Origin: Candidatus Nomurabacteria bacterium
GTDB taxonomy: Bacteria > Patescibacteriota > Minisyncoccia > Phycocordibacterales > UBA9973
Reading direction: 5' to 3'
DNA: 64,000 nucleotides
Assembly: GCA_052035195.1 (NCBI GenBank)
Contig: JBPOHU010000001.1
Location: forward strand, 104,031-168,030
Below, piece after piece: positions 39,195 through 59,796 of this stretch. Below the pieces are notes generated by a model, which worked only from the letters and a program-made list of their open reading frames with translations, searched no databases and was not told the DNA's origin. The stretch's first letter is position 1. Each line of letters starts with the position of its first letter. The position numbers and the translations under genes are program-made.

Positions 39195-39223
39195 TTGACA
39201 AATATACTATAATATGGTATTAT
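39195..39223 (+). promoter_or_regulatory. sigma70-type promoter TTGACA-N17-TATTAT
   Basis: TTGACAAATATACTATAATATGGTATTAT. Confidence 0.55.
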
Positions 39224-39260
39224 ATAAAAGATAACGTACCTTTTAACAAAAAATTCTTTT

Positions 39261-39377
39261 ATGAAAACTTTAGTAATTCTTTTAGTTTTATCTGTATTTG
39301 TCGTTTCTTGCGCCCGGGACATTAGTCCCTACAAGGCCGCAAATCACAGCGGCAAAGCCTATAAGTGCCACAGATAA
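39261..39377 (+). CDS. candidate 38-aa lipoprotein-like small peptide (or small RNA)
   Basis: Hand translation MKTLVILLVLSVFVVSCARDISPYKAANHSGKAYKCHR; signal peptide with a lipobox-like VVSC; no SD. Hairpin AAGGGCTGC...GCAGCCCTT at 39440-39470. Confidence 0.3.
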   Translation: MKTLVILLVLSVFVVSCARDISPYKAANHSGKAYKCHR

Positions 39378-39516
39378 AACTTGACATAGGATACCAGGCA
39401 TGCTATGCTGGTATCAGAATTTAATGGGTTAGTAAGTAAGAGGGCTGCCGTCAATAGACGTGCAGCCCTTATTTTGTTTATAGCTTTTTATATATTTTAT
39501 GCTAAAATAGTACCCA

Positions 39517-46453: not shown

Positions 46454-46572
46454 TTGACAAAACACTCTAAATATGCTATTATATAGATATAGCTCTTTGA
46501 GATGTTTTAGTTGGTTTTCCAGAGTTTTCATCCGCCAACTGGCGGAAGGTTTTGGTAAATCAACTAAACAAT
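46454..46572 (+). promoter_or_regulatory. promoter (TTGACA-N17-TATTAT) plus ~85-nt conserved leader, copy 1
   Basis: About 85-90% identical to 49071-49192 from the -35 element to the start codon; flanking DNA is unrelated. Confidence 0.7.
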
Positions 46573-46911
46573 ATGCTACTTAAAATAATTAAAACCTTTT
46601 CCACGCTACTTATGGTGATTGCTATTATTTATCTTTCTTGGTTTATCTATCATCAAATAAAATATTCCAAACAAGAAAAAGTTATAGTGTCACTCGAAGC
46701 AAAAAATGAACAGAACAGAGAAGAATTTTACAAATTATCTGATTTGCGACATGAAATCAAAATGAATGACTATTTTGCGAAAACCGATAGTTTAGACACT
46801 GAAATATCAAAAAGAAACAAAATCGGAGAAAAAATTCTCCAACAAATAGACAGTGTCCGTAACGTCAAACGAGAGATTAATGCAAAAAGTACTTTCTGGA
46901 TAGTAAGGTGA
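46573..46911 (+). CDS. small membrane/coiled-coil protein
   Basis: MLLKIIKTFSTLLMVIAIIYLSWFIY TM helix then a charged coiled region. The finder's TTG start at 46552 is in the leader. Terminator AAGCCTCC...GGAGGCTTTTTTTATT at 46928-46958. Confidence 0.4.
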   Translation: MLLKIIKTFSTLLMVIAIIYLSWFIYHQIKYSKQEKVIVSLEAKNEQNREEFYKLSDLRHEIKMNDYFAKTDSLDTEISKRNKIGEKILQQIDSVRNVKREINAKSTFWIVR

Positions 46912-46977
46912 TTAAAAAACTATTAGCAAGCCTCCAAACAAAACGGAGGCTTTTTTTATTGCTTTATATATTACACA

Positions 46978-47006
46978 AAATAAAAAACTAGCATTTCTGC
47001 TAGTTT
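46978..47006 (-). terminator. intrinsic terminator of the ABC transporter (minus)
   Basis: Minus-strand read: AACTAGCA-gaaa-TGCTAGTT followed by TTTTTATTTT. Confidence 0.55.
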
Positions 47007-47011
47007 CGTTT

Positions 47012-48781
47012 TTAATTAATTGCAAGACCTTTTTGCCATAAAACATTAAATTGTTTATTAGATGACAAAAGATCACTGAGAGTTCCAGCGCCTACAATTC
47101 GTCCCTCGCTAAAGAAATATATCTTTTGGAATAAAGGGAGCAAATGAAGACGATGGATAGTTGAGATAACTGTTTTACCTTCAAACTCTTTAAAGATGTT
47201 TTTATAAACCTCCATTTCAGTAGCAGTATCTAAACTACTTGTAGGTTCATCGAGTAAAACAATATCTTTGTTATGACTAGCAAGAAGACCTCTTGCTAAA
47301 GCCAAACGTTGTTGCTGTCCACCACTGAGATTAACACCTTTTTCTTTGATAGAGGTGTCAAACTTTTTTGGTAATTTATCAGCAACCTCAGTAAAGCAAG
47401 CCATGTCGGTATACTTTTTAACAAAATCCATTTCATATTCTGCTCCTAATGTAATATTTTCAATTATTGTAGTTGCAAATATTTCTGGATTTTGTGGCAC
47501 CAACGAGATTGCCTGACTTATACTCTCAAAACCATCAGATAAATCTTGCCCATCTACTTTTAAATGAATACTTTTTGGGCAATATAAATCCCTAACAACC
47601 TTTAATAAGGTTGTTTTACCACTTCCTGTTTCTCCAACAAGTGCAATGTGTTCACCTTTTTGTATAGACATAGAAATGTCTTCCAGGTGTAACTCGCAAG
47701 ACTCTTCATTGTGGTAAGAAAAATTAAGATTTTTAATTTCCAACTGTTTCCAATCTTTAGGTAATAAATGATTGGTAAAGTTTTCTATCTTAAAATCTTC
47801 TGTTAATTCTTCTGAGTTAACTACCTTGGCCTTACGATGCAAAGTGTCTCCGTACATGCTAGTAAATTTAAAAAATAATTCACTAACCCTGCCTAGATAA
47901 TTGATAAGAAGATAAACACTTCCTACCAAAACACCTTGTGTAGTTCCTATGTGTTGCCAAAAATAAACAGCCAAAACGATTACTGTCATACCAGAGCAAC
48001 ACATATTTGTCAGAAACCATTTAAGTTCAACCAAGCGATTGTTCTTTTTGAAGAGTTCATACGGCTTTTCTACCTTGCTAGCAATAGCGCTAAAGACCAA
48101 TCTTTCAACCCTAAGAATGATAACTGTTGTGATATTACTAATAGCGTCAAAAACACTTTCAGAAACATTATTTTCATAACGATTCAGTTGTTTATATTGA
48201 TCGATAATAACTCGATCAAATCGCATAGTTATCCAAATACTTATCAGTATCATTCCTAGTACAATAAAAGATGACGAGGGACTAAAATAAATAAGCATAG
48301 CGTAGCTTACAACAAACTGTACAATTGCTGAGATAACTAAAAAAGAATTCTCAGAAAATGAATACAGCCCGCTCGCTCCTTTTTCTATTCTATCTATCGT
48401 ATCTCCCGAATGATGGTCAACGTGCCACTCCATAGGAAGCGACATTACTCCTTTCAACAAGTGTTTTCGATAACTTGCCCTAGCCTTAAAAGCATTAATA
48501 CGCTCTATAAGCCTAGCAGGACCATGGAACCCCCAAAATAGTACATCGATAAGTACAGTGAGGGACAAGAGCGTCAGAAGTAAACCAATATTTTCTTTTG
48601 TAATTCCTTGCTTGGTAATTACATCAATTATCTTGGCCCATATTATAGGACCAGGAACTAACTCAACTATATTTGCTGTGATAAACATAGCCCAGTACAG
48701 TACAATTTTACTTTTATTACCGTCTGAATACTGCCATGTTTTTCTAAGCAAATAGGAGAGTGGGTTTTGATTTTTTCTCAT
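47012..48781 (-). CDS. ABC transporter, fused permease/ATP-binding protein (MsbA-like exporter)
   Basis: Six-TM N-terminal domain; Walker A GETGSGKTT, signature LSGGQQQRLALARGL, Walker B VLLDEPTSSLD. Confidence 0.8.
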   Translation of the reverse strand: MRKNQNPLSYLLRKTWQYSDGNKSKIVLYWAMFITANIVELVPGPIIWAKIIDVITKQGITKENIGLLLTLLSLTVLIDVLFWGFHGPARLIERINAFKARASYRKHLLKGVMSLPMEWHVDHHSGDTIDRIEKGASGLYSFSENSFLVISAIVQFVVSYAMLIYFSPSSSFIVLGMILISIWITMRFDRVIIDQYKQLNRYENNVSESVFDAISNITTVIILRVERLVFSAIASKVEKPYELFKKNNRLVELKWFLTNMCCSGMTVIVLAVYFWQHIGTTQGVLVGSVYLLINYLGRVSELFFKFTSMYGDTLHRKAKVVNSEELTEDFKIENFTNHLLPKDWKQLEIKNLNFSYHNEESCELHLEDISMSIQKGEHIALVGETGSGKTTLLKVVRDLYCPKSIHLKVDGQDLSDGFESISQAISLVPQNPEIFATTIIENITLGAEYEMDFVKKYTDMACFTEVADKLPKKFDTSIKEKGVNLSGGQQQRLALARGLLASHNKDIVLLDEPTSSLDTATEMEVYKNIFKEFEGKTVISTIHRLHLLPLFQKIYFFSEGRIVGAGTLSDLLSSNKQFNVLWQKGLAIN

Positions 48782-49019
48782 ATTTTTTTATTTAGTTGTG
48801 AAAAGAACATTTTTATTGCTCAACAAAAAATTCCAGCTTCTGCCGAGCTGGAATTTCTGTAGTAAAAGAGAAACTAAAAGCTAGGCACAAACCTATTGTT
48901 GGCGTCAAAAGAGACGAGGAAGGTGAGTTGACCCTTCCAAGGCATTCGCGCGATGTATTGGTTTGTATTGCTTTTTTTCATAACCCTTTGATAATAGCAT
49001 ATTTTATAAAAATGTAAAG
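48782..49019 (-). promoter_or_regulatory. promoter (TTTACA-N17-TATTAT, minus) and ~200-nt structured 5' UTR with an attenuator-like hairpin+U-tract
   Basis: Minus-strand read: hairpin AATTCCAGC-tcggcagaa-GCTGGAATT then TTTTTTG ~40 nt before the start codon. Upstream candidate P1 ACAAACC/GGTTTGT encloses a GGAAGG...CCTTCC hairpin. Confidence 0.45.
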
Positions 49020-49070
49020 AATAAGTAAAAAATCACTTAATTTTATTGGCTAGAATGTACAAAATAATGT

Positions 49071-49192
49071 TTGACAAAACACTCTAAATATGCTATTATA
49101 TAAGTATAGTTCTTTGAGATGTTTTAGTTGGTTTTCCAGAGCATTCTTTCTACCAGACAAAAAGTTTTGGTAAACCAATTAAAATTTAGTTT
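49071..49192 (+). promoter_or_regulatory. promoter plus conserved leader, copy 2
   Basis: TTGACAAAACACTCTAAATATGCTATTATATAAGTATAGTTCTTTGAGATGTTTTAGTTGGTTTTCCAGAG...GTTTTGGTAAACCAATTAAA matches copy 1. Confidence 0.7.
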
Positions 49193-49363
49193 ATGAAATA
49201 TTTAACCCCTGTTGGTATTTTTTTAATTTTTTCGTTTATCGTAATATTCATTGTTGCGGCAGCTACGAAAAATTTTTACGCTTTCGGTTTTAGCGAATTG
49301 TGCGCCCTGGCTGGTATTGCCTGTGTAGCAAAAGCAAACAGAAAAGAAAAAACACCGGCGTAA
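49193..49363 (+). CDS. 56-aa small membrane protein
   Basis: Hand translation MKYLTPVGIFLIFSFIVIFIVAAATKNFYAFGFSELCALAGIACVAKANRKEKTPA. Followed by terminator GCCTTCTCC-aaaa-GAGGAGGCTTTTTTT (49385-49413). Confidence 0.35.
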   Translation: MKYLTPVGIFLIFSFIVIFIVAAATKNFYAFGFSELCALAGIACVAKANRKEKTPA

Positions 49364-49445
49364 TGTACCCACAAAAAATACAAAGCCTTCTCCAAAAGAG
49401 GAGGCTTTTTTTATTGCCTTTTTTATTGTAAAATACACCTTATAT

Positions 49446-59010: not shown

Positions 59011-59796
59011 ATGGAAGAATATTTAGAATTTGCAAAGAAGCTTGCCAAAGAAGCTGAAATAATAGCTTTGAAATATTTTAGTTTTGAAGTTGAAAAAACA
59101 TGGAAAGAAGACGATACTCCATTAACACTAGCTGATACAGAAATTAATGACCTGGTTATAAAAAGAATAAATGAATCTTATCCGGAACATAGTATTTATG
59201 GAGAAGAAAAAAGTGAGATAAAAGAAAACTCTAAATACATATGGGTTTGTGATCCAATAGATGGAACCTCAGGATTCTCATTAGGATTACCAATTTTTGT
59301 TTTTTCAATAGCTTTAGTAGACCAACAAACAGGCATGCCGATACTTGGTTTAATCAACGATCCAGTTATGAAAAATATGTACTGGGCCTACAAAGGATCT
59401 GGGGCTTATAGAAATAATCAAAAAATATCTGTATGCAAAAATGACACGCTAAAAAATTCTTATTTGAGTATTGGTGCTTCTGGTAAGAAAATTATGTTTT
59501 CACCAGTAAAACCTTTTGAAAAATTAATTGAAAAAAACTGCAAACAAATGAAGCTACCATCTTTTATTTATGGAGGCGTTCAAGTAGCAAATGGAAAATT
59601 TATTGGTTCTATATTTTATGCCGAAAGTGGTCATGACATAGCAGCTTTAAAAATTATTACTGAAGAAGCTGGTGGTAAGGTTACTGATTTAAACGGAAAA
59701 GAAAGAAGGTATGATAAAGATGGCGTTGGTTGTATTATCTCTAACGGAATATTACATCAAGAAATATTAGACATAGTCCAATCTGGAAAAAAATGA
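59011..59796 (+). CDS. inositol monophosphatase family protein
   Basis: WVCDPIDGTSGF metal-binding motif and GEEKSE region of the IMPase family. Confidence 0.7.
   Translation: MEEYLEFAKKLAKEAEIIALKYFSFEVEKTWKEDDTPLTLADTEINDLVIKRINESYPEHSIYGEEKSEIKENSKYIWVCDPIDGTSGFSLGLPIFVFSIALVDQQTGMPILGLINDPVMKNMYWAYKGSGAYRNNQKISVCKNDTLKNSYLSIGASGKKIMFSPVKPFEKLIEKNCKQMKLPSFIYGGVQVANGKFIGSIFYAESGHDIAALKIITEEAGGKVTDLNGKERRYDKDGVGCIISNGILHQEILDIVQSGKK

Follow-up and report, generated by a model that had tools for sequence, protein, structure and literature searches.

A boxA-like motif and a long covarying hairpin in the leaders of small-gene cassettes of Paceibacteria

Two small-gene cassettes in the dnaJ-lysS interval

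A stretch of 64,000 nucleotides (nt) from a Candidatus Nomurabacteria genome (assembly GCA_052035195.1, contig JBPOHU010000001.1, positions 104,031 to 168,030; the whole stretch is referred to here as the window) contains two copies of a promoter-plus-leader sequence, each in front of a small open reading frame (ORF). The window belongs to a Candidate Phyla Radiation (CPR) genome with a GC content of 36% and carries ribosomal protein genes, rpoA, grpE-dnaK-dnaJ, ftsZ/A, and alaS. The cassettes occupy the conserved interval between dnaJ and lysS, among ordinary cellular genes, none of which is of phage type. We are highly confident that the leader is a selected, structured, multi-copy cis-acting element, in which a strong promoter is followed by a 9-mer resembling boxA and by a long hairpin that ends close to the start codon.

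All features of the two cassettes lie on the forward strand. The promoter of copy 1 (46454 to 46482) comprises a -35 box TTGACA (46454 to 46459), a 17-nt spacer ending in TGC (TG at 46474 to 46475), and a -10 box TATTAT (46477 to 46482), matching 11 of 12 consensus positions in addition to the TG extension. It is followed by the boxA-like motif GCTCTTTGA (46492 to 46500), at approximately +3 to +11 of the predicted transcript, and by a hairpin (46505 to 46569) with a 5' arm at 46505 to 46524 (TTTTAGTTGGTTTTCCAGAG), an apex at 46525 to 46549 that includes TCCGCC-AACT-GGCGGA, and a 3' arm at 46550 to 46569. The ORF behind it (46573 to 46911) encodes 112 amino acids (aa) with an N-terminal membrane helix and a charged tail, and ends ahead of an intrinsic terminator, GCCTCC-9 nt-GGAGGC followed by seven T residues (46930 to 46957). 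Copy 2 has the same promoter, TTGACA-17-TATTAT with the TG extension (49071 to 49099), the motif GTTCTTTGA (49109 to 49117), and a hairpin (49122 to 49184) with a 5' arm at 49122 to 49141, an apex at 49142 to 49164, and a 3' arm at 49165 to 49184 (TTTTGGTAAACCAATTAAAA). Its ORF (49193 to 49363) encodes 56 aa with two membrane helices and is followed by an intrinsic terminator of 11 pairs, AAAGCCTTCTCC-AAAAG-AGGAGGCTTT and then TTTTATTGCC (49382 to 49414).

A preliminary description of the window had reported a repeat between 46454 to 46572 and 49071 to 49192, running from the -35 box to the start codons of two different ORFs. BLASTN aligns the two copies with 97/115 identities (84%; 2 gaps; E = 1e-32), in agreement with that report, and the ORFs are indeed mutually unrelated. 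A repeat search resolves the similarity into 46454 to 46529 versus 49071 to 49146 (93% identity over 76 nt) and 46546 to 46568 versus 49161 to 49183 (87%). The 32-nt block TTCTTTGAGATGTTTTAGTTGGTTTTCCAGAG has two sites in the window at no more than 3 mismatches, where shuffled sequences are expected to give 0. The flanks had been called unrelated, which holds only in part: the terminators behind both ORFs are also alike, sharing 45 nt at 78% identity and a GGAGGCTTTTTTTATTGC-type sequence that agrees at 25 of 28 positions. In a permissive Rfam scan, part of the copy 1 terminator matched the Phe_leader model, as a terminator look-alike. This common terminator had been overlooked, as had the exchange of cassettes and the invariant G(T/C)TCTTTGA, the most informative part of the leader.

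The leader family and its distribution

The homology search that the preliminary description had proposed yields many more copies in other genomes. Genomes and metagenomes of Paceibacteria (CPR) contain at least 20 distinct versions of the leader, and the design is also kept in more divergent ones: a σ70 promoter (TTGACA-17-TGnTATKAT), the 9-mer G(U/C)UCUUUGA, a hairpin of 19 to 23 bp, a start codon, a small ORF, and a terminator. Among species-representative genomes, an 18-mer of the 5' arm finds nine leader copies at eight CPR loci, with seven other matches that are clearly due to chance. All nine copies retain the promoter, the 9-mer, the 3' arm, and the start codon. The eight loci come from metagenome-assembled genomes (MAGs) labeled Nomurabacteria, Paceibacterota, or Saccharibacteria. 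These submitter taxa conflict for loci L033, L035, L036, and L046; the LysRS sequences of L033, L035, and L046 are all ~90% identical to that of the window, and for L046, at least, the assignment to Saccharibacteria seems to be an error. The 18-mer also occurs by chance in the Verrucomicrobia MAG CAIJGS01, in which three contigs (L037, L038, and L040) terminate in one repeat (...GGGCGCATCTCGACACTGCCCCCGATTAGTTGGTTTTCCAGAGTTCGTCCCAATGG...), which is likely to be a mobile element present in multiple copies that interrupted the assembly.

Metagenomes were scanned with the -10 box and GTTCTTTGA as the only anchors, leaving the hairpin unconstrained. Nearly every leader retrieved has a long hairpin in the same place, including members with altered arms (L059, L063, L092, L094, and L096), and the scan also returned hairpins of unrelated sequence that have equal length and position (z = -5 to -7). 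A covariance model built from 18 leaders found two further copies elsewhere, with the 9-mers GTTCTTTCA and ATTCTTTGA, and no third copy in the window. In an Rfam scan, the leaders had no match at the gathering thresholds, and only noise and terminator look-alikes at E values up to 10.

A separate, higher-GC group (L056, L058, L065, L066, L073, L081 to L083, L088, L091, L102, and L103) stems from microbial-mat metagenomes. In its members, the same promoter and GTTCTTTGA lead into a perfect hairpin of 23 bp, behind which lies an ORF of a 255- to 280-aa family ending in ...VGYFDSxGL...GLSxARKQ. In L066, the cassette adjoins a recombinase-like ORF.

The compact promoter-ORF-terminator architecture is that of a phage moron. 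This candidate was rejected: the cassettes sit between dnaJ and lysS, and three scans of viral contigs (IMG/VR) gave no true leader, with 28 chance matches lacking extension for a 16-mer, 3 chance matches for a promoter-plus-boxA pattern, and 0 for a boxA-plus-arm pattern.

Two other promoters were seen in the window. A third strong promoter in the region 39195 to 39378 (TTGACAAATATACTATAATATGGTATTATAT) shares 85% identity with the cassette promoter across 33 nt and precedes a 38-aa lipoprotein-like ORF (MKTLVILLVLSVFVVSC...), with neither boxA nor hairpin. At 39383 to 39470, TTGACA-17-TATGCT is followed after ~35 nt by a GC-rich hairpin and U-run (GGGCTGC...GCAGCCCTTATTTTGTTT), a candidate small RNA of ~65 nt that contains no ORF.

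A long helix supported by covariation

The closing helix proposed in the preliminary description proved to be longer than stated, at approximately 19 to 20 bp. The 5' arm, UUUUAGUUGGUUUU.CCAGAG, pairs with UUUUGG.UAAAYCAAYUAAAA in a regular duplex of 19 to 23 bp across the family, with one conserved U-U mismatch. It begins four bases past the 9-mer in the window copies and two to five bases past it in the family. The start codon follows the 3' arm after 3 nt in copy 1, 8 nt in copy 2, and 0 to 15 nt in the family. The two leaders fold at -29.8 (copy 1) and -22.1 (copy 2) kcal/mol, with z = -5.3 and -3.8 relative to shuffled sequences, and the stems of the family are very stable (-22 to -47 kcal/mol).

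In a MAFFT alignment of 18 sequences, 95.6% of the cells hold standard pairs, and 10 of the 19 pairs are altered on both sides, although four or five divergent members account for most of these double changes, and the structure was derived from the same sequences. None of 500 shuffles reaches any of five pairing measures, and sliding the partner by 1 to 3 columns as a control lowers pairing to 34 to 60%. RNAalifold independently gives the same helix, leaves the 9-mer unpaired, and adds four apical pairs, one of which is UA in 10 and CG in 5 sequences. With the covariance model, sense-strand matches score ~80 bits, compared with ~40 bits for the reverse strand. Since many pairs are G-U, the helix exists on the sense strand only. 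Together with the copies in other genomes, the covariation substantiates the earlier proposal of a shared cis-acting RNA leader rather than a chance duplication.

The apex varies freely, with a length of ~12 to 28 nt and unrelated sequences, and is entirely different between copies 1 and 2. Three leaders from different genomes have as their apex a GC-rich mini-palindrome, CCGCCA(A/G)(C/G)TGGCGG, which is found at 46532 to 46545 of the window and at L033 3406, L078 6288, L036 5190, and L094 9462. This palindrome also stands alone at other intergenic sites, for example, directly past the terminator upstream of lysS in L036. Three readings of local elements were discarded. The copy 1 apex (TCCGCC..GGCGGA followed by GGTTTTGG) resembles the terminator of an attenuator, but a GC-rich apex is missing from most leaders, copy 2 among them. 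Some folds pair the boxA-like motif with the stretch before the AUG, which cannot occur in leaders whose AUG directly adjoins the stem. Finally, a mini-ORF in the leader, ATG-TTT-TAG, is not conserved, and other leaders have GAGCGTTTTAG or GAAGTGTTTTAG instead.

A structured 5' untranslated region (5' UTR) common to two genes could also point to a metabolite-sensing riboswitch, as the preliminary description had suggested, or to a neutral, recent duplication of paralogues. We consider both very unlikely. A single hairpin with a free apex offers no multi-helix ligand pocket and no alternative terminator, no common function links the downstream genes, which are unrelated, and no Rfam family corresponds to the leader. 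As to neutrality, lysS DNA is ~79% identical between cassette genomes and the stem arms are almost unchanged; conservation of the leader far above that of lysS coding DNA argues that the leader is not neutral. A pattern of only two copies, without covariation and in front of recent paralogues, would have fitted duplication; it is not what we found, because further copies and covariation are present.

A boxA-like 9-mer between promoter and hairpin

Ten leaders were recruited by the hairpin arm alone, with no use of their promoter or 9-mer. They all agree in the -35 box, the -10 region, and G(T/C)TCTTTGA, and differ in the promoter spacer, the segment before the 9-mer, and the linker behind it. 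Judged by this sequence pattern, the 9-mer is selected in its own right. It lies 9 to 11 nt past the -10 box, separated from it by 9 variable bases in the window copies, and close to the predicted transcription start; it is unpaired in both the single and the consensus folds.

In rRNA operons and phage nut sites, boxA is the site at which NusB/S10 load. The 9-mer matches the gamma-proteobacterial boxA consensus GYTCTTTAANA (PMC5725501) at 8 of 9 positions. The ten hairpin-anchored leaders, which belong to family A, differ in the 9-mer only at position 2, where T or C coincides with the Y of that consensus. At the position where the 9-mer departs from the consensus, the Aquifex boxA GGCUCCUUGGCA also has G (PMC3177189). 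In 4.6 kb of the Priestia megaterium and Listeria monocytogenes rRNA operons, GTTCTTTGAAAAC is the sole motif match; it lies in the 16S-23S spacer and is identical to the motif of copy 2. The leaders of these rRNA operons have a hairpin and then (A/C)CTTTGAAAACTGAACAAAG, after promoters (TTGACA-17-TATGAT/TAAGAT) that resemble the cassette promoter. The spacer motif is reportedly the spacer boxA (Berg et al. 1989). Exact-motif literature searches combined with boxA or NusB returned nothing useful. The motif is also identical to a conserved mycoplasma sequence, GTTCTTTGAAAACTGAAT, which presumably sits in the 16S-23S spacer as well. This sequence serves as a primer of a nested PCR test (PMC3019172).

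A boxA directly 5' of a stem of ~20 bp is also reminiscent of the rRNA arrangement of boxA and processing stalk. By analogy, the hairpin may be an RNase III-type processing site, where cleavage would remove the 5' arm and free the A-rich leader; such processing might coexist with the nut-like reading developed below. The regular duplex with its one conserved U-U mismatch and the dispensable sequence and length of the apex are consistent with this idea. As the argument is one of analogy, and no rnc gene is present among the ORFs scanned in the window, we regard it as improbable.

Exchange of the downstream genes

In 30 distinct units, the leader always precedes one ORF, of 41 to 285 aa, some encoding membrane and others soluble proteins. 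Nearly all complete units have a strong intrinsic terminator after the ORF, often ...GGAGGCTTTTTTTATTGCC. A Pfam scan of 10 downstream ORFs, that of copy 1 included, found no family in any of them. Relatives of the 56-aa ORF stand behind the same leader in L039, L043, and L046, with a fixed length of 56 codons and differences that fall mostly on third positions (e.g., 13/1/19 at positions 1/2/3), which indicates that this ORF is a real gene. A protein search with the 56-aa protein returned only itself, and the exact 112-aa protein has no record.

The ORFs turn over at fixed sites. In the near-identical genome GCA_964367675.1, whose flanks are 97% identical, the copy 1 site has the same promoter and leader with another apex, and an unrelated ORF for a 99-aa soluble protein replaces the 112-aa ORF. 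Genomes with 90 to 98% identical LysRS carry differing ORFs (56, 87, 95, 102, and 134 aa) right upstream of lysS, behind the same leader. Unrelated ORFs stand behind leaders with the same apex (as in window copy 1 and L033, and in L001 and L035), and, conversely, one ORF family (L001, L063, and L078) lies behind leaders with differing apices. These mismatches in both directions imply that leader and ORF recombine independently.

Exchangeable ORFs between conserved boundaries recall an integron. The imperfect inverted repeat might accordingly be a DNA element, a recombination or operator site of the attC type that serves ORF exchange, with RNA folding being incidental. That the ORFs behind identical leaders differ between close relatives and that both cassette ends, leader and terminator, are conserved would fit such a site. 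However, a promoter of its own is present in every unit, the ~60 window ORFs scanned include no integrase or recombinase, and the arms (TTTTAGTTGG.../...CCAAYTAAAA) lack the RYYYAAC/GTTRRRY cores of attC. Furthermore, the arm spacing varies by ~16 nt, and G-U pairs are tolerated while the complementary C-A is not, so the element is specific to the sense strand. An integron attC cassette was rejected on these grounds, and a DNA-level role in general appears very improbable.

A broader proposal is that the cassette acts as a plug-in platform. Its fixed rRNA-type promoter, boxA, and processing-stalk-like hairpin, together with the fixed terminator, would provide both expression signals and homology arms, between which small fast-evolving or newborn ORFs would be swapped among loci and strains, as in an integron without integrase; Nus loading would tie output to ribosome synthesis. 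We consider this proposal unlikely.

A possible nut- or rrn-like leader

The reading that we favor, with a probability of roughly 45%, is that of a leader comparable to lambda nut and rRNA (rrn) leaders. Each copy would form the upstream part of a monocistronic unit of Paceibacteria that carries all of its own expression signals. The near-consensus, rRNA-promoter-like σ70 promoter would start an RNA with boxA, G(U/C)UCUUUGA, within its first dozen bases. As happens in rRNA operons, at lambda nut, and in CRISPR leaders and the suhB leader, NusB-S10, together with NusG, NusA, and SuhB, would be recruited by the nascent boxA to RNA polymerase during elongation. The hairpin, starting two to five bases further in the position of boxB, has as its 3' arm the A-rich stretch directly upstream of the AUG. 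Once folded, it would bring the boxA-bound complex beside the start codon and mask the sole stretch on which ribosomes could land, Shine-Dalgarno sites not being in use in this organism. In this way, the leader would set transcription processivity and gate the translation of any small ORF placed between it and the common terminator.

Known nut sites (boxA-spacer-boxB) and rrn leaders (boxB-boxA-boxC; rrnTAC with NusA/B/E/G, S4, and SuhB) share with the cassette the boxA core G(Y)UCUUU(A/G)A, which is single stranded, promoter proximal, and located beside a stem-loop. The cassette promoter is very strong and rRNA-like, comparable to TTGACA-17-TATGATAT in Priestia rrn. The cassette hairpin covaries and always follows boxA. 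In contrast to the known leaders, boxA sits at the extreme 5' end, and the hairpin measures 60 to 70 nt against 15 nt for boxB (~4-fold) and has no conserved loop. Moreover, the cassette drives a short translated ORF up to an intrinsic terminator instead of a long noncoding or polycistronic RNA, and no N-like protein is known for it.

The suhB 5' UTR contains a boxA, others are predicted upstream of rpsJ and further genes, and the Nus complex represses suhB translation (Baniulyte et al. 2017, PMC5725501). In the cassette, as in suhB, it is a protein-coding gene whose leader carries boxA, and the cassette hairpin places boxA spatially within a few nucleotides of the AUG. The linear distance from boxA to AUG is 64 to 118 nt, compared with 50 nt or less for suhB. 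The cassette targets also differ, being diverse ORFs without a Pfam family rather than translation-related genes, in an organism without Shine-Dalgarno sites. boxA elements upstream of CRISPR arrays, in several phyla, shield these long noncoding arrays from Rho (Stringer et al. 2020, PMC7665894). They, too, represent boxA recruited beyond rRNA operons, whereas the cassette transcripts are short mRNAs.

The genomic setting bears on the translational part of the model. Only 3 of 54 long window ORFs have a Shine-Dalgarno-like sequence, and many window genes have an extended -10 box 7 to 12 nt upstream of the ATG, suggesting that leaderless mRNAs are widespread. In a genome almost without Shine-Dalgarno sites, a leadered mRNA would be recognized via unstructured A-rich RNA, and precisely this kind of stretch is concealed in the hairpin as its 3' arm. 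Further supporting context comes from SuhB, the fifth Nus factor of Escherichia coli: among the window ORFs scanned, one belongs to the SuhB/IMPase family (59011 to 59796), with no boxA upstream. Another encodes YbeY. No boxA precedes the two tRNA genes.

Several observations weigh against the nut- or rrn-like reading. The rRNA boxA of the Paceibacteria themselves may differ from the 9-mer. No rRNA genes were found in the window (Rfam), in 15 related loci, or in all loci by a primer-pattern search. The ORFs scanned in the 64 kb of the window include no NusB, S10, or Rho gene. In the metagenome set, which was recruited via the 9-mer, the presence of the 9-mer is given by construction. The order of boxA and then hairpin at the extreme 5' end equals that of lambda nut, and the two Bacillota rRNA leaders have it reversed. 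For short translated genes that end in strong terminators, the need for antitermination is not obvious. Lastly, the 5' arm is nearly invariant even across genomes whose LysRS proteins are just 55% identical; Nus factors fail to explain this, and a different sequence-specific reader or horizontal transfer may be involved.

Hairpins in 5' UTRs are known to stabilize or gate mRNAs, as in ompA/ermC-type leaders, the RNase III-processed leaders of lambda N and adhE, and RNA thermometers. Like these, the cassette has a long stem near the 5' end that abuts the initiation region; the known cases have no invariant boxA-like strand and are not multi-copy modules on unrelated genes. Accordingly, the hairpin might be a gate of translation or stability with no Nus role, sequestering the A-rich stretch before the AUG or protecting the 5' end. 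The invariant single strand and 5' arm would then be read by a lineage-specific RNA-binding protein, S1 or ribosome standby, a small RNA, or temperature. The closeness of the 3' arm to the AUG, the near absence of Shine-Dalgarno use, and the very stable stems all suit such a gate, and the conservation of the arm across distant genomes suggests sequence-specific recognition beyond the needs of pairing. On the other hand, a gate leaves the coincidence of the 9-mer with boxA (8 to 9 of 9 positions) unexplained, as well as the same 9-mer before hairpins of unrelated sequence, and no candidate factor or small RNA has been identified. We therefore see it as a possible but doubtful explanation.

boxA outside rRNA operons is already known from suhB and CRISPR leaders. 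New is the combination of a 5'-end boxA with a long covarying hairpin, reused on exchangeable monocistronic cassettes of CPR bacteria; to our knowledge, such a fusion on exchangeable small-gene cassettes in the CPR has not been described.

Implications for CPR bacteria

The CPR represents a large share of bacterial diversity, and gene control in these bacteria is scarcely known. The leader is a first candidate regulatory RNA motif for them, and a widespread one. If the nut- or rrn-like reading is true, a family of mRNA leaders would join rRNA, phage, CRISPR, and suhB as targets of boxA/Nus control. The hairpin is also relevant to the translation of leadered mRNAs where a genome lacks Shine-Dalgarno sites. 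Finally, the leader marks strongly promoted, rapidly exchanged small proteins, many of them membrane bound, which are candidates for host interaction in these episymbionts.

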